Of a DNA stretch of 64,000 nt, positions 1 through 64,000 are shown one piece after another (positions within the stretch are counted from its first letter, which is position 1; the number at the start of each line of letters is the position of its first letter). The notes under the pieces are model-generated. The model did not search any database, was not told the origin of the DNA, and worked only from the letters and a program-made list of their open reading frames with translations. A program made the position numbers and the translations under genes. Source of the DNA: Eledone cirrhosa (lineage: Eukaryota); contig OZ024741.1 in assembly GCA_964016885.1 (NCBI GenBank), forward strand, positions 238,204,001-238,268,000, read 5' to 3'.

Positions 1-2028
1 AGATGTATCATTACTAACAAACAGTGTTAGTATGATAACAGTTGTTGCTGATTGAACTGGAGTACCACCATCTTTCACTATAAACTGTAGGTCATATGTT
101 CCTGCATCATTTTGGTAAACTGTCCGAGAGAAAGATAAGACACCAGTGTGGGAGTTGACTGTAAACAGGTTTTTATCATTAGATCTCAGTATTCCATATG
201 TGAGGAAAGCATTGTTTCCAGTGTCTTTGTCAGAGGCTTTCAGAATTGTGATGTCTTTCTTACTGTGTGGATGGTAGTGGACATCTAGATTGTAAGGGTC
301 ATTAATAGGAAAGGTAAAATAGGGAGCATTATCATTTTTATCTAGAATCTCAATAACAATATTGGCAGTGTCATTCAGAGAAGGTGTTCCATTATCTTTG
401 ACTAAAACCTGGAAATTATAGATGTCTTTTACTTCCCGATCTATTGATTGTGATGTAGAAATGAATCCATATTTTGTAAGTTGGAAAGGAATGTTATCAT
501 TGTTGTTATCATTGATGATAGAATATGTGAGTTGACCTCCATCTTCAAGATCAGGGTCTGTAGCATTGATGAAGCCAATAGGAAAGTCAACTTTCTGGTT
601 TTCATAGGTGAGGAATTGGAATGTATCTTTGGTAAAATGTGGCTGTACATCATTGACATCAGTTACTTTCACTGAGAAATATTTCTTAGTTTCTAGTTGA
701 GGTGATCCCATGTCATGACATGCAATAGATACTTTATAGTGGTCCTTTATTTCTCTATCAAGATGTCCCTTAATAATCATTTTATATTCTTTAAAATCTA
801 TTTTGACAAGTTTAAATTTATCATGTTTTAAGTCACAGCTAACCTCACCATTAGGTCCAACATCAGTGTCAGTGACCATAACATAAGCTATAAAACTATC
901 TAGTTCACTGTCTTCTGAAACTGTTGTGGAACTTTCTGTTAAAGGTGATACAAAATCTATATTTATCAATGGAGCATTATTCTGGTTATTGATTATGTAA
1001 ATATGAACTGTAGTTACAGAACTTAACGAGGGATTTCCTTGATCTTGTACTTCAATATATAAATTGTAAGTCTGTTTCCTGCCTAAAGTAAAACTATCTT
1101 TTAAATATATTTCCCCATTTGTTTCTTTCAATAAAAAATGTTTTAGTGAATGAATGGAAGTTTTATGGTTGAAATGATAAGAAATCTTTCCGTTGTTTCC
1201 AGAATCTAAATCCGTGGCTTTTAAAGTAAGAATTGGTAAATGTCTTTGATGTGAATTTTTTATAGATATGTTGTAGACTTTCTGTGAAAATACAGGTGTG
1301 TTATCATTAACATCTGTCACATCTATGAGTACCTTGAGTGTAGCTGTTTGGGGAGGGTCCCCTCCATCTTTAGCTTCAAGTGTCAACATATATGATTTCT
1401 TTAGTTCCCTGTCTAATTTATCTTTTAGACTCAGTCCTGGAATGAGGATGCCATCATGTCGTTTTGTCATATACAAAGAAAATGGGTTTCTTTCCTGTGT
1501 CACTATTCTATATGTAATTTGTGAATTTATGGTGGTAATATCTCTATCTATGGCAAATGGAATTATCTTTCTCGTTCCTTTAAAACTGTCCTCAGCAAAT
1601 TGAACAGTGATTTTGTCAACAGAAAACTCTGGGGAATGGTCATTGATGTCTTCAATGATTATCTTGAGTTTTAACATCTTCATAAATGTTTTTCCTTTCC
1701 TCACTGCTACTTTAACAATTCTGGAACATTCCTTGTTATATGTACACAGTGACTCAGCATCTAGTGTCTGTGTAGTATATAGTTTTCCTGTGTTGGTGAC
1801 ATTGAATAAGTTAGAACCACTTGACACCGTCCTTTGTAGTTGTGTAAATGTAATGAGAGTGTGTTGTTGATGTGTAAGAGAGTGTGTTAAGTTAGAATCA
1901 ACAGCAATGTCTCCTATATAGGTGTGAGGACTGTCATTTTCATTGACATGGTATGTAATGTCAGCAGATACTATAACAGACTGTTGTAAATATAGTAAAC
2001 ACACCAGGTAAATGATATTTCCACTCAT
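1..2028 (-). CDS. Protocadherin P1, large exon, 3'-truncated by window edge (signal peptide, EC1-EC6)
   Basis: ATG at 2028 (MSGNIIYLVCLLYLQQ). Colinear with P5 with no net indel (same 2027-nt offset to the matching base). Motifs LCTYNKEC, DINDHSP, LDRE and DVNDNTP are present. Absent from the ORF track because its stop lies outside the window. Confidence 0.93.
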   Translation of the reverse strand, partial: MSGNIIYLVCLLYLQQSVIVSADITYHVNENDSPHTYIGDIAVDSNLTHSLTHQQHTLITFTQLQRTVSSGSNLFNVTNTGKLYTTQTLDAESLCTYNKECSRIVKVAVRKGKTFMKMLKLKIIIEDINDHSPEFSVDKITVQFAEDSFKGTRKIIPFAIDRDITTINSQITYRIVTQERNPFSLYMTKRHDGILIPGLSLKDKLDRELKKSYMLTLEAKDGGDPPQTATLKVLIDVTDVNDNTPVFSQKVYNISIKNSHQRHLPILTLKATDLDSGNNGKISYHFNHKTSIHSLKHFLLKETNGEIYLKDSFTLGRKQTYNLYIEVQDQGNPSLSSVTTVHIYIINNQNNAPLINIDFVSPLTESSTTVSEDSELDSFIAYVMVTDTDVGPNGEVSCDLKHDKFKLVKIDFKEYKMIIKGHLDREIKDHYKVSIACHDMGSPQLETKKYFSVKVTDVNDVQPHFTKDTFQFLTYENQKVDFPIGFINATDPDLEDGGQLTYSIINDNNNDNIPFQLTKYGFISTSQSIDREVKDIYNFQVLVKDNGTPSLNDTANIVIEILDKNDNAPYFTFPINDPYNLDVHYHPHSKKDITILKASDKDTGNNAFLTYGILRSNDKNLFTVNSHTGVLSFSRTVYQNDAGTYDLQFIVKDGGTPVQSATTVIILTLFVSNDTS

Positions 2029-2339
2029 GGCTGCAACTCTTCCTTCCTCATTACTGAATATTCCTATAAGTATAATAGCAATGTTTTATTATAAGTAGAG
2101 TGAAGCCATTTCCATGAAAATTTATTTGAAATAATACTTATTCACCAAGATATGGATTAAAACAATTTAAATATATTTTATTACCAATTTAATATAAATA
2201 CATCTATATCAATAAAATATTTTTACGCGTAAAATCAACATAAATAATTTGACTTTAGAGTTATCTCCCCTAGACGTTTTATTACTGCAATATTTTGTCG
2301 TTAGTATTTTTCCCACTAACTGTAAATATTAATGTGTAT

Positions 2340-3170
2340 GTTTTATGTATAATAGCCGAAATTTCGATAGCTCTTAACTCTTTTCTAATAAAAACAAAAC
2401 ACACTATTAAAAGGGAACAAAAAGAGAACGAAAAAAAAAGAAAAAGAAAGAAGGATCAAGCAACAAAAGAAAGGGAGAGGGGGAGGGACAGACACTACAC
2501 CCCAATCTGAGCGGTACCTGAGGCACGCCCCGCTTACAATATGGCAAAAGCATTACTGTAGAGAATGGCCAGAGACAACCACTGCAACAGCCACCTCACG
2601 GGGCTCCCTCATAAAGCGGGCCGCCGTCTTTTCGACTGTACAGAGAAAATCAGCAGTGCAGGGACCAAGTACACCAAAAGTCAGGACACAGTATTTGGTT
2701 GGTCAGGCCACTGTATTTGACTATCTCTCTCTTCTGCATTGCAGGCTGCAGAGCCCAGGTTTGTGGCAAAAGCTACAAGGATAGAGACAGAGAACATGTT
2801 GCTGCATATCGCATCCCCAATTAGGGATTTGTCCCCCTCAAAAAAGAAGCGAGTTAATCCATCAGAGCACTTGCCATCACCATGGTCGAGGCCAGCTGGC
2901 TCCAATTGTGATGAGAGACCAGCTGTATTGAGGCTCCTTCTAATGATGTCGTTCAAAGCAGTATGAAGGGGGAGCTATCCTGCACTAAAACAGCTAGATA
3001 ATGGGTGCAAACCAAACTCGTCGACCACTGCACTAAAACGGCATTTGTGTGACTCACACACATGGAGACAGAGATACTGTGCCTCTCCAATGTGGATGCA
3101 GTTCACATCGAGAAGGGTAACGGTTGATGAAGAGGGCACCAAATGGAGCCAAGTTCCACTATTTGGTTGT
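2340..3170 (-). mobile_element. Decayed 3' end of a CRE-like (RLE) non-LTR retrotransposon
   Basis: Translation NDIIRRSL..LEPAGLDHGDGK.SDGLT and downstream WLLQWLSLAIL.SNA match the C-terminal restriction-like endonuclease region of CRE-type elements. Stops and frameshifts present. Confidence 0.6.
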
Positions 3171-8315: not shown

Positions 8316-8680
8316 CTGCATTGTTTAATCCTTTTCCGTAGTTGTGTGATGGATGATGCGTATCCAGTTGAAGTGTTCCACTGTAACTGCTGCTACTGTT
8401 ATGGTGGTGTTATAGTGAGTGTAACTGCTGCTACTTTTAGAGTGGTGTGGTAATGTAACTACTACTGAATAATTTTACTCTTACTGCTAATTTAGTATTG
8501 TTCCAATAACATTCCTGTTATGTAGTGTTCTAGTGTGACTGCTAATGCAGTAGTGTGACAGTAACTATATGTAGTAGGAGGTGGGATATAAGCCAGATGG
8601 TGTTGGGGTGATAGTTACAACACTATGTCTTCCACACACACAATAGTGTGTATCAGGAACAAAGAAAAAAGCTATCAGCC
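8316..8680 (-). other. Putative 5' leader exon of P1 (donor after 8316; splices to acceptor at 2063)
   Basis: Block conserved once per repeat unit, ending AACAATGCAG|GTATG. Acceptor cttatag|G lies 35 nt upstream of the P1 ATG. The 5' boundary is approximate. Confidence 0.7.
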
Positions 8681-8745
8681 TCACTTTGAATATTGAAAGA
8701 AATATATAAAATTTCTCTCATCCAATAGGAAATTACTGCAATGTT
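8671..8745 (-). promoter_or_regulatory. Conserved promoter-like block of P1 (CCAAT box plus TATA-like element)
   Basis: gctatcagcctcactttgaatattgaaagaaatatataaaa..ccaatag.aaattactgca is nearly invariant upstream of every leader exon. Confidence 0.6.
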
Positions 8746-9681
8746 GTCTATCACACAAACACATGGAATAATACAATTCATGTGAAAGTGAAGCAGCTTG
8801 ATAATTTACATATGGTAACATCATATGTAAATTATATTTAGTATTAATAAACAACTGATTTATATTTAAAAAATACAAACTTGAGAATTTTATTTTGTGT
8901 TATTAATAAATATATAACTCCTGTGCTATTTCTATTAGCAAAATTTAAAATTTAGTATAGATTGCTATTGTGTTTCATTATTGAAGGATATAAGTATATA
9001 TTATATAACAAAATAAACCAAATAAATTGTGAAAATAAAGATATCTAAAATGAAATTTAAAAAAAATAAATAAAGGGATTTTTGAAAACATTCTAATTTA
9101 ATGGCTATTGTGTTTAAAAAATATATAAATAAAAAAAGGGATTAAAAAAAACATTCTAATTTAATAACTATTATGAACTTCAGAAAGTATTAAACATCTG
9201 AATTTCCAAATTTAACAAAACAACTATCTTATTTTCAGTGCATTTACTTCTATACTGAAAGCTGTGAGAACCATCAATTATCCTTGATAAAATTAATTCT
9301 ACATTTAATGTAAAAGAGAAAGCAGTGGAAGTGGTAGCTAGTTAAATTGGTATCTCACTAAAAGTAAAACAATAAAAAGATGTTTATCGTAGAACTGGTA
9401 TTTAACTAAATGACAGCATAACCAATATTCTAAGACAACTGTGTTGTGGGAAATGTGTATAAAAACTTATAGTATAGTAACTATTTAATTCTATACAACT
9501 GTATATGTAATATCTAATGTATCAGATGTAAATTCAGGGTCATGATATATGTAATTGCAAATAAGTTTGTTGTGTGTGATGTTTAAAAGAAATACAGAGT
9601 TGATATTTTTATATCAATATAAATTATTCTATAACATTTGGTGTGTGAGAGAATCATTTAACAATAGTGATGAGACATCTA

Positions 9682-9761
9682 CTACGTTGGCTGTAGATAG
9701 GTATCTTGTACTTGTTGTCCCTTTTGTATTGTGACTGGAACTGGATTGTCATTGGTATATT
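9682..9761 (-). CDS. Protocadherin P2 terminal coding exon (EYTNDNPVPVTIQKGQQVQDTYLQPT*)
   Basis: Acceptor tattttccag|AA. Phase 1 matches the preceding exon. TAG at 9684-9682. Conserved in six copies. Confidence 0.8.
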
Positions 9762-9919
9762 CTGGAAAATATAAAATATAGAAATAGAATTATATTTCAA
9801 TATAACAACACTGTAAAGATATAAACATTGATGTTATATTACACTAACTATAACATTACATAATGTCTTACAGTAATTAAGGGAATTATATTTCTATGTT
9901 ATGTTTAGATAAAAGTTAC

Positions 9920-10067
9920 CTGGTTGTGCAGATATCTCTTCATATGGTTTAGTCTTGCCAATACTCTTGTAACCTTCTCTGCTTTTTTGTGATGTTAAGG
10001 TGTCACTGTTGTAGTTAGACATGCTGAGACTGCTGCGACCTTCATGACTATGGATTGAATCACATCT
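9920..10067 (-). CDS. Protocadherin P2 cytoplasmic exon, 148 nt (RCDSIHSHEG...KPYEEISAQP)
   Basis: atccacag|AGA acceptor and CCAG|GTAACT donor. Open in phase 0. Same length in all six complete copies. Confidence 0.85.
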
Positions 10068-10324: not shown

Positions 10325-12724
10325 CTGTGGAACTGGTGGAAGTCTCCTTTGTGTTGTTGAGAATTTCCACTCGTCTGGTAGCTGTTCCATCTCTGGATAA
10401 AACTGACCTTTAGATTTTATTGTCTGAAGATTTCTGTTAAATATCTCTTCTGCATTTCTGGTTATTGCAACAGGATTGTTAGTTTGATACAATAATTGTC
10501 TCATCTCAGTCTGAGACAGAAAGTTTGGATTATCTGCTGTTGTAGGTGAGTTATTGGTGTGATTAATACATCTGAAAACACACAGTGTTATTGACACTAC
10601 AATAGCCACAGATATTATTACAGCTGCTGCTACAATGATAATTACCCAAGTCATATTGAGATCATTACCAGACTGTAAGTGGACAGCATTCAACATTGGA
10701 GATGTATCATTACTAACAAACAGTGTTAGTATGATAACAGTTGTTGCTGATTGAACTGGAGTACCACCATCTTTCACTATAAACTGTAGGTCATATGTTC
10801 CTGCATCATTTTGGTAAACTGTCCGAGAGAAAGATAAGACACCAGTATGGGAGTTGACTGTAAACAGGTTTTTATCATTAGATCTCAGTATTCCATATGT
10901 GAGGAAAGCATTGTTTCCAGTGTCTTTGTCAGAGGCTTTAAGAATGGTGATGTCTTTCTTACTGTGTGGATGGTAGTGGACATCTAGATTGTAAGGGTCA
11001 TTAATAGGAAAGGTAAAATAGGGAGCATTATCATTTTTATCTAGAATCTCAATAACAATATTGGCAGTGTCATTCAGAGAAGGTGTTCCATTATCTTTGA
11101 CTAAAACCTGGAAGTTATAGATGTCTTTTACTTCCCGGTCTATTGATTGTGATGTAGAAATAAATCCATATTTTGTAAGTTGGAAAGGAATAATATCATT
11201 GTTGTTATCATTGATGATAGAATATGTAAGTAGACCTCCATCTTCAAGATCAGGGTCTGTAGCATTGATGAAGCCAATAGGGAAGTCAACTTTCTGGTTT
11301 TCATAGGTGAGGAATTGGAATGTATCTTTGGTAAAATGTGGCTGTACATCATTGACATCAGTTACTTTCACTGAGAAATACTTCTTAGTTTCTAGTTGAG
11401 GTGATCCCATGTCATGACATGCAATAGATACTTTATAGTGGTCCTTTATTTCTCTATCAAGATGTCCCTTAACAATCATTTTATATTCTTTAGAATCTAT
11501 TTTGGTAAGTTTAAATTTATCATGTTTTAAATCACAGCTAACCTCACCATTAGGTCCAACATCAGTGTCAGTGACCATAACATAAGCTATAAAACTATCT
11601 ATTTCACTGTCTTCTGAAACTGCTGTGGAACTTTCTGTCAAAGGTGATACAAAATCTATATTTATCACTGGAGCATTATTCTGGTTATTAATTATGTAAA
11701 TATGAACTCTGGTAACAGACTTTAGGGGAGGTTTGCCCTCATCTTGTGCATCAATAAACAATTTATAAGATTGCATCTTGCTAACGTGAAAATTATCATG
11801 TAAATACAACTCTCCAGTTTTCTTATCTAATACAAAATATTTCTGGACATTTCGAGATGTTTTATGGTTGAAATGATAAGAAATCTTTCCATTGTCTCCA
11901 GAATCTAGATCTGTGGCTTTTAATGTAAGAATTGGTAAATGTCTTTGATGTGAATTATTTATAGATATGTTGTAGACTTTCTGTGAAAATACAGGTGTGT
12001 TATCATTAACATCTGTCACAGCTATGTGTACCTTGAGGGTAGCTGTCTGTGGAGGGTTCCCTCCATCTTTAGCTTCAAGTGTCAACATATATGAGTCTTT
12101 TATTTCCCTGTCTAATTTATCTTCTAAATTTAGGGCTGGTATGAAGACACCATCATCTTGTTTTGTGACAAAAAGAGAAAATGGTTCTTTCTTACTTTTT
12201 CTTATCATGTATGTAATTTGAGAATTCTTTATTGAAATATCTTGGTCAATGGCATTTGGAAGAAGATTTTTAGTCCCTTTACTATCTCTCTCTAGAAATT
12301 CAATTGTAACTTCATTCACTGGAAATTCTGGTGAATGATCATTGATGTCTTCTATAAATATTTTTATTTTAAGAATTTTCATGAAGGTTTTTCCCTTCCT
12401 CACTGCTACTTTAACAATTCTGGAACATTCCTTGTTATATGTACACAGAGACTCAGCATCCAGTGTCTGTGTAGTGTATAGTTTTCCTGTGTTGGTGACA
12501 TTGAATAAGTGAGAACCACTTGACACCGTCCTTTGCAGTTGTGTAAATGTTATGAGAGTGTGTTGTTGATGTGTAAGAGAGTGTGTTAAGTTAGAATCAA
12601 CAGCAATGTCTCCTATATAGGTGTGAAGACTGTCTTCTTCATTGACATGGTATGTAATGTCTATAGACAGTACAAGGTTTATCAATAAATGTAGTAGACA
12701 GAGTAGACCAATATATGTTGTCAT
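10325..12724 (-). CDS. Protocadherin P2 large exon (800 codons; SP, 6 EC, TM, proximal tail)
   Basis: Cadherin motifs DxNDxxP, LDRE and DxD; EC1 C-x5-C; TM WVIIIVAAAVIISVAIVVSITLCVF; donor CAG|GTAAAT after PVPQ. Confidence 0.96.
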
Positions 12725-14452
12725 GTCTGGAATTCTTCATCACACTTTAGCTGTAGAAATGTCTACAAAAGACAACTCAAATATTTAAATTCTATGTAAC
12801 AAATATAATATCAAATCATTTTAGAAACCATTTTAAAATGATGTTTCTATTACTAATTACACTCTGGCCTAAGCCCACATAATATTGCTGATATACCTCT
12901 AAAATATCTCAAATTTCAAGGAATTATTGTATTTCCCAGGAGTTTAAATTAGTGGGAACTATGCAAATTACTCATAATTATAAGACATAATTAATACATA
13001 ATGACTTAAAAATACATCTTCAGGAAAACATTGTTTTAATAAGGAAGTTATTAAAGAACAGTGATAAGTAAAGAAAACCAAAGTGTTCATAGAATTTTAG
13101 TTGACTCTAATCAGAACAGATATAATGGGTAGTCTTCAAGTGAAATTTAATCAAGGGAGTTTCAGATTCAGGACATGATAACTTGGATTTAGTCAATCAA
13201 TATATTCATCTAATAATTTATTTTAAACAAGAATTTCCATATTCTCTAGCCCTTCGCCAATTTCTTGTTACTTAATCTTGCTTTTAATTTTTTTTCATAT
13301 TTATGTAACCATCGATGATTTTTTAAGCCAACTTTGTGAATATTTATAATTGTGTTTACAAAATTATTGGAAATACTTTACAATAGTATTTTTTCTAAAT
13401 GATGATAAAATATTTCAGTGAATTTTGTTGTTGAAAAAAAATTATTATTTTAATAAAATATTTAAATTGTTTTATTAAATTAATTACAAGAAAAATAAAA
13501 ACAATTTTTATATATGATATGTAAAGTTTATATTATACTGCTACATTTAAAATAATTCCTGGTAAGATTTGTTACTAACAACTATAATGTAATATACCTC
13601 ATTTTTACAAACATCAATATTACTATTTCTTAACAAATTTATAATATACATCTATTATTGTTAGAATTAATATCTTTTAACAACACATAACAATATCCTC
13701 AGTTTATATATCACACTAAATATGGTAAAATACTTAGATTAAATTATATTTATCATTTTAATAAACAAAGAAATATATAATGTATATTTACTGAGATATA
13801 TAAGATAGTAATGATCTTGTAGACTTCATTAAAGCTAAAGAAGGATTAACATTTAATTACTGATTTATTACACAAAACAGCGATACAAATTTCACAACAT
13901 AGCTTATTAACATCCACTTTTACAGTCAATGTTTTCTCAGAGTTAAATAAAGCTATACACCATGTTTGAAATATATTATTCAAATATAGATTTCAATATA
14001 CAGTAGCAGTATATTTATAGATTAATATCTCTTGTACAATGTGTCTTGTGTGATTCTGACATTAAAATATGTAGTCTTTCTAGAATTGTACTAATACAAC
14101 TGCAGTTGTTTTCAATGATATAAATGATGATAAGATCTCTCTATCCTCTATTGTCTTCACCCTTTTAGATAAATATGATGATGATGACAACATGGCAAAC
14201 ATATTCAGCTTTGTTAGCTGCTGTATTAAATGGTGAAAAGGATAGTGAAATTTCTCTGTTTTCTACTGTCCCAGTCCCTATATAACTTGGGAGGCATGTT
14301 AGGTATTATCTTTGCTCTGTAATTCACTATAAATACATAATATATATGTTATAATGAATATGAAAATATAATACAGGTAGAGAAAGATGTAGATAGATAG
14401 ATAGTCAAATAGATAGATAGACCGAGAGAGAGACACAAACAGACAAATTTAC

Positions 14453-14790
14453 CTGCATTGTTTAATCCTGCACTGTAGTTGTGTGTGATGGATGATGTGT
14501 ATCCTGCTGTAGTATTCCAGTGTAACTGCTGCTACTGTCATGGTGGTGTTATTCCGTTACAGCTATTGTAGTAGCTTTCCAGTGTTACTACTACTATAGT
14601 AGTGATCCAGTGTAATAACTGCTGCTGTTGTTGTGTTCTAGTGTAACTGCTGATGTAGTAGTAAAATAGTGGCTGTGTGCAGTGGTGGTGGGATGTTAGC
14701 CAGATGGTGTTGGGGTGATAGTTACAACACTATGTCTTCCACACACACACAATTGTGTGTATCAGGAACAAAGAAAAAAGCTATCAGCCT
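14453..14790 (-). other. Putative 5' leader exon of P2 (splices to acceptor at 12762 or 12750)
   Basis: Conserved block ending ATGCAG|GTAAA; acceptor cttttgtag|AC. The 5' boundary is approximate. Confidence 0.7.
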
Positions 14791-14855
14791 CACTTTGAAT
14801 ATTGAAAGAAATATATAAAATCTCTCCCAGCCAATAAGAAATTACTGCAATGTTG
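14780..14855 (-). promoter_or_regulatory. Conserved promoter-like block of P2
   Basis: Same CCAAT/TATA-like block as 8671-8745. Confidence 0.6.
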
Positions 14856-15404
14856 TTTATGTAACAGAAACACATGAAATAGTTCAATTCATGGGAAAGT
14901 GAAGCAGCTTGATAATTTACATATGACAATATCACTGCATGACATATTCAGTATTAATAAATAAAAGATTTGTATTAAAAACTTAATATCTATATTTGAT
15001 CAATTATTATTAACTTCATTCAATCTTAATATGAGAGAATTATTCAATAACCATTTCTATCAGAAACAATTTTATGATAGAGAAGACAGTCAAGGTTTAT
15101 TACGTTAACATTACCAAAACAAAATGAATAATTTAAATATATTCTAGGATAGCTTAAATTTATTTATCTATATTTTGTAGAATGTACGCTAATATTCTTG
15201 TTAAAATAAATATGTATTTTGTTATAGAATAGGCTATTTAAAAAAAAATATATTATAAATCAGGGATTATAATAGAAGCCACTATAATGCAACTGTGTGA
15301 TGTGAGAAAGGAATATAAAGTTGATATTTCTATTTCAATATAAAGTATCCTATAACATTTGGTGTGTGTGAGAGAATCCTTTAACAAAAGTGATGGGACA
15401 TCTA

Positions 15405-15484
15405 CTATGTTGGCTGTAGATAGGTATCTTGTACTTGTTGTCCCTTTTGTATTGTGGCTGGAACTGGATTGTCATTGGTATATT
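15405..15484 (-). CDS. Protocadherin P3 terminal coding exon
   Basis: 80 nt, ttccag|AA acceptor, TAG stop; paralogous to 9682-9761. Confidence 0.8.
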
Positions 15485-15643
15485 CTGGAAAATATAAAAT
15501 ATAGAAACAGAAATTATATTTCAATATAACAACTCTGTAAAGATATAAACATTGTTGTTATATTACACTAAACATAACATTAAATATTGTCTTACAGTAA
15601 TAAAGAGACTTATATTTCTATGTTATGTTTAGATAAAAGTTAC

Positions 15644-15791
15644 CTGGCTGTGCAGATATCTCTTCATATGGTTTACCCTTGCCAATACTCTTGTAACCTT
15701 CTCTGCTTTTTTGTGATGTTAAGGTGTCACTGTTGTAGTTAGACAAGCTGAGACTGGTGCGACCTTCATGACTATGGATTGAATCACATCT
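15644..15791 (-). CDS. Protocadherin P3 148-nt cytoplasmic exon
   Basis: Canonical AG/GT; paralogous to 9920-10067. Confidence 0.85.
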
Positions 15792-18777: not shown

Positions 18778-21177
18778 CTGAGGAACTGGTGGAAGTCTCC
18801 TTTGTGTTGTTGAGAATTTCCACTCATCTGGTAGCTGTTCCATCTCTGGATAAAACTGACTTTTAGATTTTATTGTCTGAAGATTTCTAGCAAATATATC
18901 TTCTGCATTTCTAGTTATTGCAACAGGATTGTTAGTCTGATACAATAATTGTCTCATCTCAGTCTGAGACAGAAAGTTTGGATTATCTGCTGTTGTAGGT
19001 GAGTTATTGGTGTGATTAATACATCTGAAAACACACAGTGTTATTGACACTACGATAGCCACAGATATTATTACAGCTGCTGCTACAATGATAATTACCC
19101 AAGTCATATTGAGGTCGTTACCAGTCTGTAAGTGGACAGCATTCAACATTGGAGATGTATCATTACTAACAAACAATGTTAGTATGATAACAGTTGTTGC
19201 TGATTGAACTGGAGTACCACCATCTTTCACTATAAACTGTAGGTCATATGTTCCTGCATCATTTTGGTAAACTGTCCGAGAGAAAGATAAGACACCAGTG
19301 TGGGAGTTGACTGTAAACAGGTTTTTATCATTAGATCTCAGTATTCCATATGTGAGGAAAGCATTGTTTCCAGTGTCTTTGTCAGAGGCTTTCAGAATGG
19401 TGATGTCTTTCTTACTGTGTGGATGGTAGTGGACATCTAGATTGTAAGGGTCATTAATAGGAAAGGTTAAATAGGGAGCATTATCATTTTTATCTAGAAT
19501 CTCAATAACAATATTGGCAGTGTCATTCAGAGAAGGTGTTCCATTATCTTTGACTAAAACCTGGAATTTATAGATGTCTTTCACTTCCCGATCTATTGAT
19601 TGTGATGTAGAAATAAATCCATATTTTGTAAGTTGGAAAGGAATGTTATCATTGTTGTTTTCATTGATGATAGAATATGTAAGTTGACCTCCATCTCCAA
19701 GATCAGGGTCAGTAGCATTGATGAAGCCAATAGGGAAGTCAACTTTCTGGTTTTCATAGGTGAGGAATTGGAATGTATCTTTGGTAAAATGTGGCTGTAC
19801 ATCATTGACATCAGTTACTTTCACTGAGAAATATTTCTTAGTTTCTAGCTGAGGTGATCCCATGTCATGACATACAATAGATACTTTATAGTGGTCCTTT
19901 ATTTCTCTATCAAGATGTCCTTTAATAATTAAATTATATTCTTTAGAATCTATTTTGGCAAGTTTAAATTTATCATGTTTTAAATCACAGCTAACCTCAC
20001 CATTAGGTCCAACATCAGTGTCAGTGACCATAACATAAGCTATAAAACTATCTAGTTCACTGTCTTCTGAAACTGCTGTGGAACTTTCTGTTAAAGGAGA
20101 TACAAAATCTATATTTATCACTGGAGCACTATTCTGGTTATTAATTATGTAAATATGAACTCTGGTAACAGACTTTAGGGGAGGTTTTCCTTCATCACGT
20201 GCATCAATAAATAATTTATAAGATTGCATCTTACTAAAGTTAAAATTATCATGTAAAAATATCTCTCCAGTTTTCTTATCTAATACAAAATATTTCAGGG
20301 CATTTCGTGATGTTTTATGGTTGAAATGATAAGAAATCTTTCCGTTGTGTCCAGAATCTAAATCTGTGGCTTTTAAAGTAAGAATTGGTAAATGTCTTTG
20401 ATGTGAATTATTTATAGATATGTTGTAGACTTTCTGTGAAAATACAGGTGTGTTATCATTAACATCTGTCACAGCTATGTGTACTTTGAGGGTAGCTGTT
20501 TTGGGAGGGTTCCCTCCATCTTTAGCTTCAAGCATTAAGATATATGAGTCTTTTAGTTCCCTATCTAATTTCTCTTTTAAATTTAGGGCAGGTATGAAGA
20601 CACCATCATCTTGTTTTGTGACAGAGAGAGAAAATGTTTCGCTCTGACTTTTCTTTAACATGTATGTAATTTGAGAATTCTTTTTTGAAACATCTTGATC
20701 AATGGCATTTGGAAGAGAGATTTTATCTCCTTTACTGTCTCTCTCAAAAAATTCAATTGTAACTTCATTCTCTGGAAATTCTGGTGAATGGTCATTGATG
20801 TCTTCTATAAATATTTTTATTTTGATAATTTTCATGAAAGTTTTTCCTTTCCTTACTGCTACTTTAACGATTCTGGAACATTCCTTGTTATATGTACACA
20901 GTGACTCAGCATCCAGTGTCTGTGTAGTGTATAGTTTTCCTGTGTTGGTGACATTGAATAAGTGAGAACCACTTGACACTGTCCTTTGTAGTTGTGTAAA
21001 TGTAATGAGAGTGTGTTGTTGATGTGTAAGAGAGTGTGTTAAGTTAGAATCAACAGCAATGTCTCCTATATAGGTGTGAGGACTGGCTTCTTCATTGACA
21101 TGATATGTAATGTCTATAGACAGTACAAGGTCTATCAGTAAATATAGTAGACAGAGTAGACCAATATATGTTGTCAT
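18778..21177 (-). CDS. Protocadherin P3 large exon
   Basis: Same motifs as P2; donor CAG|GTAAAT at 18778. Confidence 0.96.
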
Positions 21178-21359
21178 ATCTGCAATTCTTCATCACACTT
21201 CAGCAGTAGAAATTTCTACAAAAGATATCAGTAGTATTTAAAGTCAAAGGAAAATTACATTAAAATATCTGATAAATATAGAAAATATTGTATAAAATAT
21301 ATTCCTATTCCGAATTACACTTCATTAAAGTCAAATGAAGAATTCAAATTAAACCATTT

Positions 21360-40055: not shown

Positions 40056-40213
40056 CTGGAAATATAAAATATAGAAAAAGAAATTATATTTCAATATAAC
40101 AACTCTGTAAAGAGATAAACATTGATGTTATATTACACTAACCATAACAATATATATTGTCTTACAGTAATAAAGGGAATTACATTTCTATGTTATGTTT
40201 AGATAAAAGTTAC

Positions 40214-40361
40214 CTGGTTGTGAAGGTATCTCTTCATATGGTTTAGTCTTGCCAATACTTTTGTAACCTTCTCTGCTTTTTTGTGATGTTAAGGTGTCAC
40301 TGTTGTAGTTAGACATGCTGAGACTGGTGCGACCTTCATGACTATGGATTGAATCACATCT
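40214..40361 (-). CDS. Protocadherin P6 148-nt cytoplasmic exon (...PYEEIPSQP)
   Basis: Canonical AG/GT. Confidence 0.85.
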
Positions 40362-42369: not shown

Positions 42370-44772
42370 CTGAGGAACTGGTGGAAGTCTCCTTTGTGTT
42401 GTTGAGAATTTCCACTCATCTGGTAGCTGTTCCATCTCTGGATAAAACTGACTTTTAGATTTTATTGTCTGAAGATTTCTAGCAAATATATCTTCTGCAT
42501 TTCTCGTTATTGCAACAGGATTGTTAGTCTGATACAGTAATTGTCTCATCTCAGTTTGAGACAGAAAGTTTGGATTATCTGCTGTTGTAGGTGAGTTATT
42601 GGTGTGATTAATACATCTGAAAACACACAGTGTTATTGACACTACAATAGCCACAGATATTATTACAGCTGCTGCTACAATGATAATTACCCAAGTCATA
42701 TTGAGGTCGTTACCAGACTGTAAGTGGACAGCATTCAACATTGGAGATGTATCATTACTAACAAACAGTGTTAGTATGATAACAGTTGTTCCTGATTGAA
42801 CTGGAGTACCACCATCTTTCACTATAAACTGTAGGTCATATGTTCCTGCATCATTTTGGTAAACTGTCCGAGAGAAAGATAAGACACCAGTATGAGAGTT
42901 GACTGTAAACAGGTTTTTATCATTAGATCTCAGTATTCCATATGTGAGGAAAGCATTGTTTCCAGTGTCTTTGTCAGAGGCTTTCAGAATTGTGATGTCT
43001 TTCTTACTGTGAGGATGGTAGTGGACATCTAGATTGTAAGGGTCATTAATAGGAAAGGTAAAATAGGGAGCATTATCATTTTTATCTAGAATCTCAATAA
43101 CTATATTGGCAGTGTCATTCAGAGAAGGTGTTCCATTATCTTTGACTAAAACCTGGAATTTATAGATGTCTTTCACTTCCCGATCTATTGATTGTGATGT
43201 AGAAATAAATCCATATTTTGTAAGTTGGAAAGGAATGTTATCATTGTTGTTATCATTGATGATAGAATATGTAAGTTGACCTCCATCTCCAAGATCAGGG
43301 TCTGTAGCATTGATGAAGCCAATAGGGAAGTCAACTTTCTGGTTTTCATAGGTGAGGAATTGGAATGTATCTTTGGTAAAATGTGGCTGTACATCATTGA
43401 CATCAGTTACTTTGACAGAGAAATATTTCTTAGTCTTTAACTGAGGTGATCCCATGTCATGACATAGAATTGATACTTTATAGTGGTCCTTTATTTCTCT
43501 ATCAAGATGTCCTTTAATAATCATTTTATATTCTTTAGAATCTATTTTGGCAAGTTTAAATTTATCATGTTTTAAATCACAGCTAACCTCACCATTAGGT
43601 CCAACATCAGTGTCAGAGACTATAACATAAGCTATAAAACTATCTATTTCACTGTCTTCTGAAACTGCTGTGGAACTTTCTGTTAAAGGTGATACAAAAT
43701 CTATATTTATCACTGGAGCATTATTCTGGTCATTAATTATGTGAATTCGAACTGTGGTTACAGAACGTAAGGAGGGACTTCCTTCATCCCGTGCTTCAAT
43801 AAATAATTTGTAAGTTTGTTTCTCTCCAAAACTAAAATTATCTTTTAAATATATCTCTCCATTTTTTTCTTTCAATACAAAATGTTTCTGGGCATTTTGA
43901 GATGTTTTATGGTTGAAATGATAAGTAATCTTCCCATTGTTTCCAGAATCTAGATCTGTGGCTTTTAAAGTAAGAATTGGTAAATGTCTTTGATGTGAAT
44001 TATTTATAGATATGTTGTAGATTTTCTGTGAAAATATAGGTTTGTTATCATTGACATCTGTCACAGCTATGAGTACCTTGAGTGTAGCTGTTTGGGGAGG
44101 GTTCCCTCCATCTTTAGCTTCAAGTGTCAACATATATGAGTTCTCCAGTTCCCTGTCTAATTTCTTTTCCAGAGTAAGTTCTGGTGTGAAGACACCATCA
44201 TTTTGTTTTACCATATACAAAGAAAATGGTGCTCTATTACTGTTCATTATTTTATAAGTGATTTGTGAATTTATGGTGGTAATATCTCTGTCTATAGCAT
44301 ATGGAATTATCTTTCTTGTTCCTTTAAAACTGTCCTCAGCAAATTGAACAGTGATTTTGTCAACAGAAAACTCTGGTAAATGGTCATTGATGTCTTTAAT
44401 GATTATCTTGAGTTTTAACATCTTCATAAAAGTATTTCCTTTCCTCACTGCTACTTTAACAATTCTGGAACATTCCTTGTTATATGTACACAGAGACTCA
44501 GCATCCAGTGTCTGTGTAGTGTATAGTTTTCCTGTGTTGGTGACATTAAATAAGTGAGAACCACTTGACACCGTCCTTTGTAGTTGTGTAAATGTAATGA
44601 GAGTGTGTTGTTGATGTGTAAGAGAGTGTGTTAAGTTAGAATCAACAGCAATGTCTCCTATATAGGTGTGAGGACTGTCTTCTTCATTGACATGATATGT
44701 AATGTCTACAGACACTATAACCGACTGTTGTAAATATAGTAAACACACCAGGTAAATGATATTTCCACTCAT
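42370..44772 (-). CDS. Protocadherin P6 large exon
   Basis: Same motifs as P2; donor at 42370. Confidence 0.96.
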
Positions 44773-45816
44773 GACTGCAACTCTTCATTTGCATTATTGA
44801 ATATTTCTGCAAGTATAGAGCATTATACAATCAAATACATTTTAAAATTATTTATCTAATTGAAATTATTGCAACCAATACATTTTTTATATGTAAATAT
44901 CAAGGTAAACAAATATAGTTCGTGAATATTTCAAACCTGCCAACTCTTCCTGTCTAATGGGGAGATCTCCCACCCACTTTTTCATTATGTAAAATCTTCC
45001 CATTTTGTCTCATTTCTCCTCGTTATGAGGCACCTTTTTCATGGTACTCCCGTTTTGGTTTTTAGAGATAGGCAAGCCTGATATTTGTTTAATTGTAGTG
45101 TTGAAAGACAAGATGGAGTAAACAGAATAAGACCAGAAAGAAGAGGAAACACAAAGAAGAACAAATAGTGAATGAGGATGCCATAGAATGTGTGACGAAA
45201 GAGCTTTGACGAAATAACAAACAAACAATAACTAATAATAAGAAAACTGAAGTGAAAGTCAAATAGTACGTGTCATTTTATTGGCCAAATTGGCAACATG
45301 ACCATCTAAAAATGACAAATTTTAATTGTACTTTAGAGTTATCTCCCCTAGACGTAATCTTAACTTAACAGAACTGTATAAAGTGTTTAAACAAGTCTTG
45401 TGTGTTAGCAGCGTGGAAATGGTTCTACGAATTTAAATATTTTAGTTACTTCTATGGGAAGATAGGAGAGAAGAATTCGTGATGGTCATATGAAAACATA
45501 TTAAAAAAACAACAACAAAAACAACTGCAAACGCTTTACATATAAACCCATAGAACTGGACCTCATACAGGAAGGGTTTTATAATTTGTTTTACTATCTC
45601 CTAAAAGTTCGCAATTTTAGTCATTTTTGAACAGATGTCAAATGAAATACGTTTATTTTTTTTAAGGAAACGTTGAATGAGACAAGCTTGCACTATGTTT
45701 TTAATATTCAATTATTTTAATAATTAAGGACTTGCATAAAATAATAGGACTCTTCTAAATCCTTTTCTCTCTCTGTGGTATTGGTGTGCATGTGCATGTG
45801 CGTGTGTGTGTGTGTG

Positions 45817-55386: not shown

Positions 55387-55730
55387 CTTCATTGTTTAAT
55401 ACATCACTGTAGTTGGTTGTGAGGGATGTGTATCCTGCTGTAGTGCTCCAGTATAACTGCTGCAGCTATTGTAGTGATGTTCCATTGTGATTGCTGCTGT
55501 TATAGCCGTGTTCCAGTGTAACTGTTGATGTAGTGGTGTTCCAGTGTTGTTATTGTAGTGATGTTCAACGATTACTGCAGTTGAGCATTATTCTAGTGTA
55601 ACTGGTATTTTAGAAATTTAACAGGGGTTGAATGTAGTAGTAGATGAGTTGTTAGCCAAATGGTGGTGAGACTATGTCTTCCACATACACAAAACATGTA
55701 TCATGAACAAAGAAAAAAAGCTAACGGCCT
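55387..55730 (-). other. Putative 5' leader exon of P6 (splices to 44806 across a 10.6-kb intron)
   Basis: Diverged copy ending ATGAAG|GTAAGT; acceptor tacttgcag|AA. The 5' boundary is approximate. Confidence 0.65.
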
Positions 55731-55997
55731 CACTTTGAATATTAAAAAAAATAAAATTTCTCCCATCCAATAGGAAATTACTGCAGCTGCTGTGATGTTC
55801 CAGTGTAACTGCTGGTGTGACAGTAGCTGGTGTGGCAGTAGGAGATGGGATGTTAGCTAGATAGTGGTGGAGTGATAGTTACAACACTATGTCCTCCACT
55901 CACACAATACTGTGTATCATGAACAAAGAAAAATGTTATAAGGCTCACTTTGAATATTGAAAAAAATAACATCTCTCTCATCCATTACTGAAATGTT
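55720..55997 (-). promoter_or_regulatory. Tandemly duplicated promoter-like block of P6
   Basis: ctcactttgaatatt occurs at ~55729 (CCAAT retained) and ~55944 (CCAAT lost). Confidence 0.55.
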
Positions 55998-56547
55998 GCT
56001 TGTGTAATACAAACATGAAACAATATACTTCATGTTTAAGCAGAAGCAGTATGAATATATTTTATGATTGATAATCAAATTATGTATTTAGTTTTGCTAT
56101 TGTTCATCACTAAATATATTATATTAGTTTATACTAATAAAAGTATTCTTTATTTCATTATGATAATCAATCCATATAAACTTCATGTTCAAGCAGAAAA
56201 TTGTATGATGACAAAATTAAGATATTATTGTTTAGAATATAGCAAAAGCATTTGAAAACACCAGCCCTTGGCTAACATAACAGAGCTAAAAATATTAACT
56301 AAAAATTATGCTAAATGGCTTTAGTGGTATAAAATCTATTTTCAGTTATGATTCATTAGATTAATGTAATATTCTATTTGTATTGCTAGAGAAGAAACAA
56401 TAACCCTATATATTAAATGGGGAAATATATATATATATATATATGATTTTACGAAAGGCATATAATTGATATTCTTATATCAATATAATGTATTCTATAA
56501 CATTTGGTGTGTGAGAGAATCATTTAACAAATGTGATGGGACATCTA

Positions 56548-56627
56548 CTATGTTGGCTGTAGATAGGTATCTTGTACTTGTTGACCCTTTTGTATTGTGG
56601 CTGGAACTGGATTGTCATTGGTATATT
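56548..56627 (-). CDS. Protocadherin P7 terminal coding exon
   Basis: 80 nt, ttctag|AA acceptor, TAG stop. Confidence 0.8.
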
Positions 56628-57138: not shown

Positions 57139-57286
57139 CTGGTTGTGCAGATATCTCTTCATATGGTTTAGTCTTGCCAATACTCTTGTAACCTTCTCTG
57201 CTTTTTTGTGATGTTAAGGTGTCACTGTTATAGTTAGACATGCTGAGACTGGTGCGACCTTCATGACTATGGATTGAATCACATCT
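57139..57286 (-). CDS. Protocadherin P7 148-nt cytoplasmic exon
   Basis: Canonical AG/GT. Confidence 0.85.
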
Positions 57287-59712: not shown

Positions 59713-62112
59713 CTGTGGAACTGGTGGAAGTCTCCTTTGTGTTGTTGAGAATTTCCACTCATCTGGTAGCTGTTCCATCTCTGGATAAAACTGACTTTTA
59801 GATTTTATTGTCTGGAGATTTCTAGCAAATATATCTTCTGCATTTCTCGTTATTGCAACAGGATTGTTAGTCTGCGACAATAATTGTCTCATCTCAGTCT
59901 GAGACAGAAAGTTTGGATTATCTGCTGTTGTAGGTGAGTTATTGGTGTGATTAATACATCTGAAAACACACAGTGTTATTGACACTACAATAGCCACAGA
60001 TATTATTACAGCTGCTGCTACAATGATAATTACCCAAGTCATATTGAGGTTGTTACCAGTCTGTAAGTGGACAGCATTCAACATTGGAGATGTATCATTA
60101 CTAACAAACAGTGTTAGTATGATAACAGTTGTTGCTGATTGAACTGGAGTACCACCATCTTTCGCTATAAACTGTAGGTCATATGTTCCTGCATCATTTT
60201 GGTAAACTGTCCGAGAGAAAGATAAGACACCAGTGTGGGAGTTGACTGTAAACAGGTTTTTATCATTAGATCTCAGTATTCCATATGTGAGGAAAGCATT
60301 GTTTCCAGTGTCTTTGTCAGAGGCTTTCAGAATTGTGATGTCTTTCTTACTGTGTGGATGGTAGTGGACATCTAGATTGTAAGGGTCATTAATAGGAAAG
60401 GTTAAATAGGGAGCATTATCATTTTTATCTAGAATCTCAATAACAATATTGGCAGTGTCATTCAGAGAAGGTGTTCCATTATCTTTGACTAAAGCCTGGA
60501 ATTTATAGATGTCTTTCACTTCCCGATCTATTGATTGTGATGTAGAAATAAATCCATATTTTGTAAGTTGGAAAGGAATGTTATCTTTGTTGTTATTGAT
60601 GATAGAATATGTAAGTTGACCTCCATCTCCAAGATCAGGGTCTGTAGCATTGATGAAGCCAATAGGGAAGTCAACTTTCTGGTTTTCATAAGTGAGGAAT
60701 TGGAATGTATCTTTGGTAAAATGTGGCTGTACATCATTGACATCAGTTACTTTCACTGAGAAATATTTCTTAGTTTCTAGTTGAGGTGATCCCATGTCAT
60801 GACATACAATAGATACTTTATAGTGGTCATTTATTTCTCTATCAAGATGGCCTTTAATAATCATTTTATATTCTTTAGAATCTATTTTGGTAAGTTTAAA
60901 TTTATCATGTTTTAAATCACAGCTAACCTCACCATTAGGTCCAACATCAGTGTCAGTGACCATAACATAAGCTATAAAACTATCTAGTTCACTGTCTTCT
61001 GAAACTGCTGTGGAACTTTCTGTTAAAGGTGATACATAGTCTATATTTATCACTGGAGCATTATTTTGGTTATTAATAATGTAAATATGAACTGTGGTTA
61101 CAGAACTAAGTTGAGGATTCCCTCCATCGCGTGCTTCAATAAACAATTTGTAGGACTGTTTTCCACCAAAAATAAAATTATCTTTCAAAAATATCTCTCC
61201 ATTTTTTTCTTTCAATAGAAAATGTTTCTGGATATTTCGAGATGTTTTATGGTTGAAATGATAGAAAATCTTTCCGTTGTTTTCAGAATCTAGATCTGTA
61301 GCTTTTAAAGTAAGAATTGGTAAATGTCTTTGATGTGAATTATTTATAGATATGTTGTAGACTTTCTGTGAAAATACAGGGGCATTATCATTAATATCTG
61401 TCACAACTATGTGTACCTTGAGGGTGGCAGTTTGGGGAGGGTGCCCTCCATCTTTAGCTTCAAGTGTCAATATATATGAGTCTTCTAGTTCTCTGTCTAA
61501 TTTTCTTTCTAAATTTAGGGCAGGTATGAAGACTCCATCATGCCGTTTTGTCATGTACAAAGAAAATGGGTCTCTTTCCTGTGTCATTATCTTATAAGTA
61601 ATTTGTGAATTTATGATAGTAATATCTCTGTCTATGGCATATGGAATTATCTTTCTGGTACCTTTCCAACTCTCTTCAGAATATTTAACAGTGATTTTAT
61701 CAACAAAAAATTCTGGAGAATTATCATTGATATCTTCAATGATTATCTTGAGTTTTAACATCTTCATAAAAGTTTTTCCTTTCCTCACTGCTACTTTAAC
61801 AATTCTGGAACATTCCTTGTTATATGTACACAGTGACTCAGCATCTAGTGTCTGTGTAGTATATAGTTTTCCTGTGTTGGTGACATTGAATAAGTGAGAA
61901 CCACTTGACACTGTCCTTTGTAGTTGTGTAAATGTAATGAGAGTGTGTTGTTGATGTGTAAGAGAGTGTGTTAAGTTAGAATCAATAGCAATGTCTCCTA
62001 TATAGGTGTGAGGACTGTCTTCTTCATTGACATGATATGTAATGTCTACAGACACTATAACCGACTGTTGTAAATATAATAAACACACCAGGTAAATGAT
62101 ATTTCCACTCAT
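59713..62112 (-). CDS. Protocadherin P7 large exon
   Basis: Same motifs as P2; donor CAG|GTAAAT at 59713; one-codon deletion in the EC5 Asn run. Confidence 0.96.
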
Positions 62113-63604
62113 ATCTGTATTTCTTCATTACTCCTTAATATTGGACATTGCTAGAAATAAAATATGTAAAAATTACAAACACAAAAAAAATCAAATTGAA
62201 TATATATTTGTAAGTGAAACTTGTTACAAACAACACAACTTTACTAAAAGATAAATTCTTGTAATATATAATAATGTCTAACATATTTAAATGTTCAATT
62301 TATTCAAATTTTTCTAATTATTGTAAGCAATAAGCTTATATACCAGAATTTAGGTTAGAAGTAGAGGTTTACTCTCTGAGGTACATCTCTGGTGTAAATA
62401 CATTTTCCTTAACGCTACATACTCTTCGTTACGATTTAGACTGACTTGGATTGGTTTTAAAATTTGCATATTCTAAGGAATTCATTGGTAGATATTTTGT
62501 TTGATTTTCTTTGGAAAGTCAACCCAATATTTATTTTCTGGTAAAATGACAAAAAACAAGCATCTTTCCAAGAAACATGTTGGTGATTAACTTTGAACTC
62601 CTGACCTAATCAGTACATCAGACGGATGGTTGAAACATGCAAGAAAGAGTTAAGAGAATTTTAAATATAAAGGGCAGTGTTCAAATATACATTGAGTTGT
62701 TCTACCAATATCAGAAAAATAATATATGTGTTCAAGCTGCTTTCTGATATGATATATCAATATGGTGACACTGACTATTTATATATGCCAACCACCACCA
62801 TGTTATACATATAGTATATAATTTCTTTATAGAGGGAAATGATTATCTCTAAACTGTCAGAAGTACTACTACTACTAGCACCACTACCACCACTACTACT
62901 ACTAACAACTATAATAATGTAAATATCTTTCTTACAGATTAGACAACAACATAATTTTCTCTATAATCAACATTTATATTACAATATAATTTTCCATCCA
63001 AAGAGGAAAGGCATAAAGGCCACTGATGCACAATATTTAAAAAGAGAATGAATAAAAGAGTATTTAGGTCACAGAAATAATAGAGTGTTAAAGATTTAGT
63101 AATCAACTAAACTCTCACGAAATAATGTATTACTAGACAGAAGCTTCCAAAAGAATAAGACTCTTATATTATACAAGGAAACAAAAGTAAACATTTTTCA
63201 TGACTATTACAATAAAACCAAATATTGTAGAATTCCATGATTTCCACCATCTTGACTGTATAACACGACAAAGTTTCTAATATAATCAAATAGAAATTCA
63301 GATATTTTTGAAAATTTTGATACAATACAATTTGTTTGAATGTTGAATGTTAATAACTCATCAGAGAGTAATTGTAACAGAAATACTTCATTAGATACCT
63401 TTATTTATACTATTGGATATTGATATATATTTATTGAGACATACTACCAACAGTATAAACTAAAGTAGAATCATATGAAGATAAAATCTGATTAGACATT
63501 CTATATATAATAAAGTAGACCTTTATAATCAGACTGAGCCTTGTGAACTCCAACTGCTCTGTAAAATATTATTTTAAAATATTACTCCAGCTATTGTTGT
63601 TGTT

Positions 63605-63842: not shown

Positions 63843-63876
<34 letters not shown>

Positions 63877-63881
63877 CATAC

Positions 63882-64000
63882 CTGCATTGTTTAATCCTGC
63901 ACTGTAGTTGTGTGTGATGGATGATGTGTATCCTGCTGTAGTATTCCAGTGTAACTGCTGCTACTGGCATGGTGGTGTTATGGTGTTACTGCTATTGTAG
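63882..64000 (-). other. 3' part of the putative 5' leader exon of P7 (splices to 62150)
   Basis: ATGCAG|GTATG donor; conserved block cut by the window edge. Confidence 0.7.

Follow-up and report, generated by a model that had tools for sequence, protein, structure and literature searches.

Background

Do tandem protocadherin genes that look almost alike owe their likeness to recent duplication, or are their common parts copied from gene to gene, and could the part that differs serve as a recognition code? The question is raised by a stretch of 64,000 nucleotides of the genome of the octopod Eledone cirrhosa (GenBank assembly GCA_964016885.1, contig OZ024741.1, positions 238204001-238268000; the whole stretch is called here the window). 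Its open reading frames include seven protocadherin large exons, all on the minus strand. A preliminary description of the window had proposed that the constant part of these genes is kept constant by gene conversion rather than by exon sharing, and that cadherin repeats two and three of the extracellular part (EC2-EC3) form a cell-identity barcode. We find the evolutionary half of this proposal well supported and the barcode half plausible by analogy with vertebrates. Our overall reading, to which we give a probability of about 0.6, is that the shared parts of an array of ~50 genes are copied by conversion and that EC2-EC3 are spared as an isoform-specific neuronal recognition module.

Several elements of this picture had already been published, so that its novelty is less than was first presented. 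Coleoid protocadherin diversity has been attributed to full-gene duplication, with homogenisation by conversion suggested (PMC9068888). PMC6339937 likewise describes full-gene duplication with conversion in coleoids and states that nothing is known on adhesion specificity. In vertebrate clusters conversion spares EC2-EC3 (PMC4978886), and Pcdh-beta genes are self-contained and have no constant exons (PMC7811963). The octopod-type and vertebrate expansions are independent (PMC9068888, PMC4978886).

Divergence along the array genes

The window belongs to a larger array. The surrounding 864 kb hold 49 intact large exons, every one of them on the minus strand. The array itself comprises 51 copies (48 intact and three broken) placed head to tail on one strand over 560 kb. 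The 48 intact genes lie at 238.027-238.573 Mb, and an outlying gene, g0, lies at 238.64 Mb. The array falls into subfamilies B (g1-20) and A (g22-47), with the singleton g21 between them and another singleton, g48, at its end. The window genes are g25-31 of subfamily A. We designate them P1-P7 in transcription order, apparently the opposite of the numbering in the preliminary description.

Each large exon encodes a signal peptide, EC1-EC6, a transmembrane segment (TM), and a juxtamembrane tail. The six EC repeats with a Pcdh-type EC1, the signal peptide, and the single TM place the products in the protocadherin family. Five PF00028 (Cadherin) domains and one PF08266 (Cadherin_2) domain were found in both large exons scanned against Pfam. 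The proteins match Pcdh EC1-6 structures colinearly over the full length, with ~30% identity to vertebrate proteins. The closest public proteins come from Octopus sinensis, O. vulgaris, and Argonauta hians (best matches 78-86% identity). Being multi-exon full genes in tandem, orthologous to the Octopus and Argonauta clusters, the genes are octopod clustered protocadherins.

Among the seven window genes, the rates of synonymous (dS) and nonsynonymous (dN) substitution are both highest at codons 101-350. Over the 21 pairs dS is 0.51 in the signal peptide, 0.17 in EC1, 0.46 in EC2, 0.34 in EC3, 0.09 in EC4, 0.05 in EC5, 0.045 in EC6, 0.014 in TM, and 0.05 in the tail exons. dS is uneven along the exon, as the preliminary description had required: EC2 and EC3 stand against values of 0.01-0.09 from EC4 to TM and in the tail. 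Amino-acid identity in EC1-EC6 is 94, 70, 79, 94, 97, and 99%. Residues 113-345, which make up 30% of the length, had been said to hold nearly all replacements outside the signal peptide. They hold the majority, namely 1240 of 1602 pairwise replacements (77%) and 112 of 160 variable columns.

The contrast is sharper between subfamilies. For the 520 A-vs-B pairs, dS reaches 1.78 in the signal peptide and is 0.245 in EC1, 1.39 in EC2, 1.27 in EC3, 0.43 in EC4, 0.043 in EC5, 0.059 in EC6, and 0.002 in TM. For the tail exons the value is 1.37, from 26 A genes and those 10 of the 20 B genes whose tails were modelled reliably; the automated models of the other 10 failed. For g0, dS is 0.9-3.1 or saturated in every domain. 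Therefore synonymous sites of EC5-6 are free to change, and the low dS is not intrinsic to these codons.

The nucleotide differences between A and B genes map two tracts that are homogenised array-wide, codons ~31-105 and ~451-730. In P3, the reference for domain numbering, tract 1 (EC1, present in every copy) occupies window positions 35491-35715 and tract 2 (the end of EC4, EC5, EC6, and TM) positions 33616-34455, both on the minus strand. The A-vs-B nucleotide difference is 0.02-0.08 in tract 1 and 0.00-0.08 in tract 2, where dS is 0.002-0.10. Between them lies the EC2-EC3 variable region (codons 132-351, positions 34753-35412, minus strand), with dS of 0.37-0.50 within A and 1.27-1.39 between subfamilies. 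EC5-6 are 96-98% identical across the array, and even in the old singleton g21 segments of EC1 and EC5 have been converted. In EC4 and the cytoplasmic tail homogenisation is limited to copies of one subfamily. The earlier statement that EC1, EC4-EC6, TM, and tail are nearly identical even at synonymous sites therefore holds array-wide from EC5 to TM, for EC1 at codons ~31-105 only, and for EC4 and tail inside a subfamily.

Probable gene conversion between subfamilies

We compared the array with 50 near-full-length public proteins (30 from Argonauta, 10 from O. sinensis, six from O. vulgaris, and four from O. bimaculoides). They were chosen from at least 120 public matches, with fragments, merged models, and distant paralogs excluded. 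Both subfamilies and both singleton genes have counterparts in other octopods, and A and B are found in Argonauta as well as in Octopus.

Different domains tell different histories. The identity in EC2/EC3 is 64/69% to the same subfamily in Argonauta and 50/46% to the other subfamily of the same genome. In EC5/EC6 the order is reversed, 90.5/91% against 96/96%; Argonauta's own A and B genes are 97/98% identical there. The signal peptide, EC2, EC3, EC4, and tail are nearer within a subfamily across species, whereas EC5, EC6, and TM are nearer within a species across subfamilies. Trees of 74 rows (the 50 public proteins and 24 of the 49 genes of this genome) conflict in the same way. The EC2-3 tree requires one subfamily change and 10 species changes, and the EC5-TM tree requires nine subfamily changes and two species changes, the minimum. 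Approximately unbiased (AU) tests on 28 rows rejected trees in which a species forms a clade in EC2-3 (p 4e-62) or a subfamily does so in EC5-TM (p 3e-5).

In all three A-B pairs tested the longest identical tract is 125-139 nt, compared with at most 62-70 nt in 1000 shuffles. The non-coding flanks of subfamily A have diverged, with alignment-dependent Jukes-Cantor distances of 0.36-0.88. The exception is the short intron 3: in the 18 of 26 genes that have no insertions, its distance is 0.08.

The dS values and the tree conflict show that the tracts have been exchanged array-wide, even between subfamilies older than the Argonauta-Octopus split. Together with the own tails of the genes and the AU tests, they argue strongly for gene conversion rather than exon sharing, recent duplication, or assembly collapse, as the preliminary description had supposed for the first of these. 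The two-tract conversion step of our explanation is very probable.

The pattern is not confined to this array. In a second tight array (239.9-240.1 Mb) dS is 0.62 in EC2, 0.47 in EC3, 0.04 in EC5, and 0.03 in EC6; its 19 genes come from a sampled 200 kb, and protocadherins there span 239.91-240.23 Mb. In a third (252.3-252.5 Mb; 18 genes at 252.32-252.52 Mb) dS is 0.28-0.37 in EC1-3 and 0.04-0.05 in EC5-6. For widely spaced genes (19 used of 20) dS is at least 1.5 in all domains. GC-biased conversion was considered and rejected: the GC content at third codon positions of the converted tracts is higher than in g0, but not higher than in the 19 widely spaced genes (0.23-0.30).

The EC1 of the B genes (238.35-238.57 Mb) is 91% identical to that of the A genes here and 76% identical in Argonauta, where the EC1 of B is diverse. 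The EC1 conversion tract thus spread from one subfamily to the other in the present lineage alone.

Gene structure

Five parts recur in every window gene: a conserved non-coding block and a leader exon, also non-coding, then the large exon, and finally exon 3 (148 nt) and the short exon 4. The seven paralogs have their own leader exons, as had been described, with a leader donor and an acceptor 34-38 nt upstream of the ATG in all seven. The claim that they have their own tail exons also stands: the pair lies inside the window for six genes and just outside it for the seventh, with AG/GT ends in all. Tail splice sites are canonical in 26 of 26 subfamily-A genes. Own tail exons were found for all 26 A genes, for the singletons g21 and g48, and, as blast matches, for 20 of 20 B genes. 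Within subfamily A the two tail exons (148 nt and 80 nt) share 96% identity, and the B tail differs from the A tail (37% identity).

The shared constant exons of vertebrate alpha and gamma clusters were thus not found, and minor forms may still splice to a distant tail. By its sequence the own-tail gene structure requires no shared constant exons, with limited contig support for splicing: exons 3 and 4 of P4 are joined in one contig of run X4 (library type uncertain). A chimeric origin of g21, suggested by an A-type tail 27.5 kb away, was dropped when g21's own tail superseded that tail.

The preliminary description had credited the genes with their own promoter blocks. A conserved block does precede all seven genes, inside the window for six and just beyond its edge for the seventh. 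This block is a putative promoter. One contig from a relative (run X18, guessed to be RNA; library type uncertain) connects the P4 block and leader to the large exon and traverses most of the block, so that part of the block may be 5' untranslated region.

EC2-EC3 as a candidate recognition module

In the explanation that we propose, each gene is complete in itself, carrying a leader, a large exon, and two tail exons of its own, with no common constant exons. Gene conversion very probably copies codons ~31-105 and ~451-730 array-wide, and EC4 and the tail within a subfamily only. Selection would be likely to reject conversion in EC2-EC3. By analogy with vertebrate cis-dimer data, with EC5-EC6 and tails in common every isoform would be able to pair in cis and would signal in the same way, which would take the place of the vertebrate constant exons. 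The distinct EC2-EC3 surfaces would meet in an EC2:EC3 contact and make trans binding selective among isoforms, most likely in a homophilic way. We give this trans-binding step, which leans on the vertebrate analogy, an even chance.

Several facts agree with such a division of labour. Variation falls on the same EC2-3 columns in A, in B, and in other species (rho 0.37-0.66). In vertebrate protocadherins trans binding occurs via EC1-4 and cis binding via EC5-6 (PMC8901172, PMC5106212); variable EC2-3 and shared EC5-6 would fit this scheme, and the near-identity of EC5-6 across the array would be compatible with promiscuous cis dimers. The highly variable mature positions 125 and 133 align by hand with mouse positions 116/117 and 125 (numbering within 1-2 residues), which are listed among trans-interface mutants (PMC8901172). 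Neurons of O. vulgaris express a mean of 21 protocadherins (PMC9712504).

Other observations weigh against this reading. Nei-Gojobori counts found no positive selection in EC2-3: dN/dS is 0.30-0.41, with no value above 1. The 30 sites that vary most in Argonauta A give dN and dS of 0.47 and 0.52 in subfamily A and 0.27 and 0.36 in subfamily B, the ratio reaching ~0.9. The evolution of EC2-3 seems from these counts to be relaxed or balanced, and positive selection is not proven. Some array members are near-twins in EC2-3 (g43 and g45 are two residues apart, g44 and g46 four), and many variable columns fall outside the mapped interface positions. In the third array EC1 is as variable as EC2, so that variation in EC2-3 only is not general. 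Single-cell octopus data show some protocadherins expressed broadly and others in specific cell types, and stochastic protocadherin choice is unmentioned in the available part of that study (PMC9712504). Vertebrate clusters choose their promoters stochastically by means of CTCF sites and a distal enhancer. Here a CTCF-like pattern, from which the octopod motif may differ, gave four matches in 570 kb compared with 1-6 in 10 shuffles, i.e., no enrichment.

The most direct difficulty is a loss that the preliminary description had missed. None of the 222 octopod protocadherins checked (0/49, 0/56, and 0/117) has the DxND motif at its EC3-EC4 linker. The motif is kept in the EC2-3 and EC4-5 linkers (56/56 and 117/117). 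The PE and DRE motifs of EC3 are likewise missing from all octopod sequences checked. PE, DRE, and DxND are calcium motifs of cadherins. In P3 the motif check places the altered EC3-EC4 linker at positions 34747-34767 (minus strand). Thus the canonical calcium motifs that vertebrate clustered protocadherins have at all EC-EC linkers are not all found here. Mouse alphaC1, whose EC3-EC4 linker has no calcium-coordinating residues, is the sole clustered isoform that does not aggregate cells (PMC8901172, PMC7339444). A coelacanth alphaC1-like protein shares the defect, and the lungfish and ray units shown keep DxND in six of six cases. The motif loss weakens a direct transfer of the vertebrate binding model. 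The EC3-EC4 calcium site is probably needed by the vertebrate versions and is missing in these octopod proteins. Since the linker has no calcium motifs, the geometry is probably unlike the rigid, antiparallel EC1-EC4 dimer of vertebrates; so general a loss predicts a structure that differs from vertebrate protocadherins.

Two units of a bivalve (Tegillarca) protocadherin, annotated in one merged model, have partly degenerate EC3-EC4 motifs.

An AlphaFold monomer of P3 (m43a2d218abfe; window positions 33793-35739) has a mean confidence (pLDDT) of 83 and a predicted template modelling score (pTM) of 0.54. It fits vertebrate structures at 7-8 Å over EC3-6, 26 Å over EC1-3, and 50 Å over EC1-4. 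The fold-back at EC2-EC3 that the model suggests was not counted; it could represent dimer contacts, present in the paralog alignment, that are satisfied within one chain.

A bolder form of our reading, possible but doubtful, is that EC1 and EC5-TM act as a virtual constant region of ~50 genes in an identity code. EC2-EC3 alone would then be read, through a calcium-free-hinge interface unlike the solved dimers, and the published 8-14 million years ago (Ma) burst of octopod protocadherins would be partly an artefact of conversion.

Alternative explanations

The first question is whether conversion is required at all. The genes might be recent full duplicates in which EC2-EC3 evolve fast under positive selection. 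One octopod cluster has indeed been dated to 8-14 Ma from whole-gene distances (PMC9795677), and a few pairs of the array are recent duplicates. However, the divergence of EC2-3 is accompanied by divergence of synonymous sites, signal peptides, tail exons, and flanking introns, A and B both occur in Argonauta and Octopus, and the AU tests reject a single history. This explanation is already largely refuted, and we consider it very improbable. Still less credible is an artefact of assembly or polishing, i.e., collapse of similar segments. Run X1 may be the source sample and so not independent, and g41-g46 resemble a repeated two-gene unit. Yet 0 of 1081 copy pairs are identical over EC5-TM, the same pattern is seen in the separately assembled proteins of Argonauta and O. 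sinensis, and contigs match the flanks peculiar to each copy with 0-2 differences, in seven of the eight X1 pieces listed. The segments that had to be distinguished from assembly collapse are therefore not collapsed.

If conversion is accepted, what remains is the meaning of EC2-EC3. They may simply have diverged so far that recombination no longer reaches them, and may now be drifting with constraint relaxed; the array would then provide differences in dosage or cell-type expression and no binding code. The dN/dS ratio, never above ~1, would agree with this, as would the pairs almost identical in EC2-3 and EC2-3 trees that consist mostly of lineage-specific turnover within subfamilies. We regard drift as unlikely, because EC2-EC3 are spared in three arrays here, in Argonauta, and in vertebrates, and are diverse even within A (dS 0.37-0.50) between flanking tracts with dS ~0.04, which a simple polarity gradient would not yield. 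Rather unlikely, too, is specificity in EC2-EC3 that works without a vertebrate-type homophilic dimer, a calcium-poor hinge bending the ectodomain so that binding is heterophilic (to paralogs or another ligand) or uses a different interface. The lost EC3-EC4 motifs and the alphaC1 precedent speak for it, and so does the asymmetry for an EC1:EC4 contact, EC1 being near-constant across subfamilies and EC4 subfamily-specific. But the AlphaFold EC3-EC6 segment fits its vertebrate counterpart with no sharp bend (such models judge calcium-free hinges poorly), and variable columns 125 and 133 coincide with positions of the homophilic interface in vertebrates. Conversion with EC2-EC3 spared for recognition is our preferred reading.

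Comparison with known systems

The feature belongs to the known octopod protocadherin clusters; it is outside the vertebrate alpha/gamma system yet evolves like it. The orthologous octopod array has been described as multi-exonic, head-to-tail, and made of full-gene duplicates, with conversion proposed at the gene level (PMC9068888; PMC9795677; PMC6339937). Its members are annotated as "protocadherin beta-15-like" in O. sinensis, O. vulgaris, and Argonauta hians. What is added here is that conversion maps to two tracts and leaves EC2-EC3 alone, in a pattern nested by subfamily; the available published accounts stay at the gene level. In the cephalopod literature searched we found no domain-level analysis of conversion, no binding assay, and no note on the EC3-EC4 linker; Albertin 2015 and Wang and Ragsdale 2017 may bear on these points. 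For a candidate self-recognition code of cephalopod protocadherins the array offers a natural swap series of 48 proteins near-identical in EC5-TM and most of EC1 that differ mainly in EC2-EC3.

Vertebrate alpha and gamma genes share with the octopod genes one large exon for signal peptide, EC1-6, and TM, a promoter for each isoform (putative in the octopod genes), and a diversity peak in EC2-EC3. The identities in EC1-EC6 are 94, 70, 77, 91, 98, and 99% in subfamily A, beside 96, 69, 59, 85, 98, and 84% in mouse alpha (PMC4978886, Table 1). The octopod genes differ in their independent origin (~30% identity), own tail exons, and separate non-coding leader exon; the CTCF-like pattern searched for is not enriched. 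Regional conversion sparing EC2-EC3, characteristic of vertebrate clusters, is found here too. The pattern evolved here afresh, in three arrays, and so points to a functional constraint that both systems share.

Conversion also homogenises the 3' parts of Pcdh-beta genes. These genes have a single exon, a short tail, and no cytoplasmic domain in common, in contrast to the four exons of the octopod genes and the near-identical tail exons within A. Pcdh-beta proteins are strictly homophilic even at 92% identity (beta6/beta8; PMC8901172). In solved vertebrate structures all linkers are canonical (PMC5106212), unlike the EC3-EC4 linker here. Mouse alphaC1 is the single, non-aggregating vertebrate exception; in octopods the EC3-EC4 loss is general (222 of 222).

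The A-vs-B distance is 0.55 in EC2-3, 0.025 in EC5-TM, and 0.21 for the whole gene, so whole-gene distances misdate such expansions. The present array is probably the "beta" cluster dated to 8-14 Ma in PMC9795677.

Gene coordinates and neighbouring sequences

All gene features below are on the minus strand and are given in window positions. The 3' part of the non-coding leader exon of P1 occupies 63882-64000 (donor GCAG/GTATG at 63882), and the block match lies just outside, at ~64184-64339. Its large exon is at 59713-62150 (ATG 62112), exon 3 (148 nt) at 57139-57286, and the coding part of exon 4 up to the stop at 56548-56627. P2 has its block and leader exon at 55387-56049 (two partial copies of the block at 55776-56049, donor 55387), its large exon at 42370-44806 (ATG 44772), and its tail exons at 39976-40361 (exon 3, 40361-40214; exon 4, 40055-39976). 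The block and leader of P3 lie at 37936-38364 (donor 37936) and its large exon at 33403-35843 (ATG 35805); its tail exons, 32977-32830 and 31685-31606, span 31606-32977 with a long interspersed nuclear element (LINE) fragment in the intron.

For P4 the block and leader are at 30665-31119 (donor 30665), the large exon at 25652-28089 (ATG 28051), and the tail exons at 24838-25224 (25224-25077 and 24917-24838). P5 follows with block and leader at 23886-24345 (ATTGG at 24268, donor 23886), large exon at 18778-21215 (ATG 21177), and tail exons at 15405-15791 (15791-15644 and 15484-15405). The corresponding features of P6 are at 14453-14912 (donor 14453), 10325-12762 (ATG 12724), and 9682-10067 (10067-9920 and 9761-9682). 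P7 has its block and leader at 8316-8801 (donor 8316). Its large exon, at 1-2063 (ATG 2028), is cut by the window edge, the rest and its own tail exons lying outside.

Intron fragments at 48951-46641 (minus strand), 40653-41710 (plus), and 31782-32779 (plus) presumably derive from a LINE-type endonuclease/reverse transcriptase, judging by their motifs. The leader intron of P2 is 10.6 kb long because of inserted LINE-type fragments.

The three broken large exons of the array lie at 238155-238157, 238445-238448, and 238582-238585 kb of the contig, and there is a 200-N assembly gap at 238591985. At 238296369-238299200, orphan A-type tail exons, a block, and a leader follow a 160-bp remnant of a large exon; they are the trace of a deleted gene that headed subfamily A. 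Genes g41-g46 (238053-238113 kb) form about three repeats of a two-gene unit, with g43 and g45 differing by 0.4% across the exon, which is either a recent duplication or a haplotype artefact. Further dispersed protocadherin genes occur on the same contig at 331-340 Mb and on contig C7.

Because the segments are near-identical, reads and annotations at these loci are unreliable. Seven public models of 1,484-5,758 aa (P0127, P0137, P0148, P0152, P0155, P0170, and P0172) merge neighbouring genes of the orthologous arrays and are named Fat4-like, cadherin-23-like, or uncharacterised.

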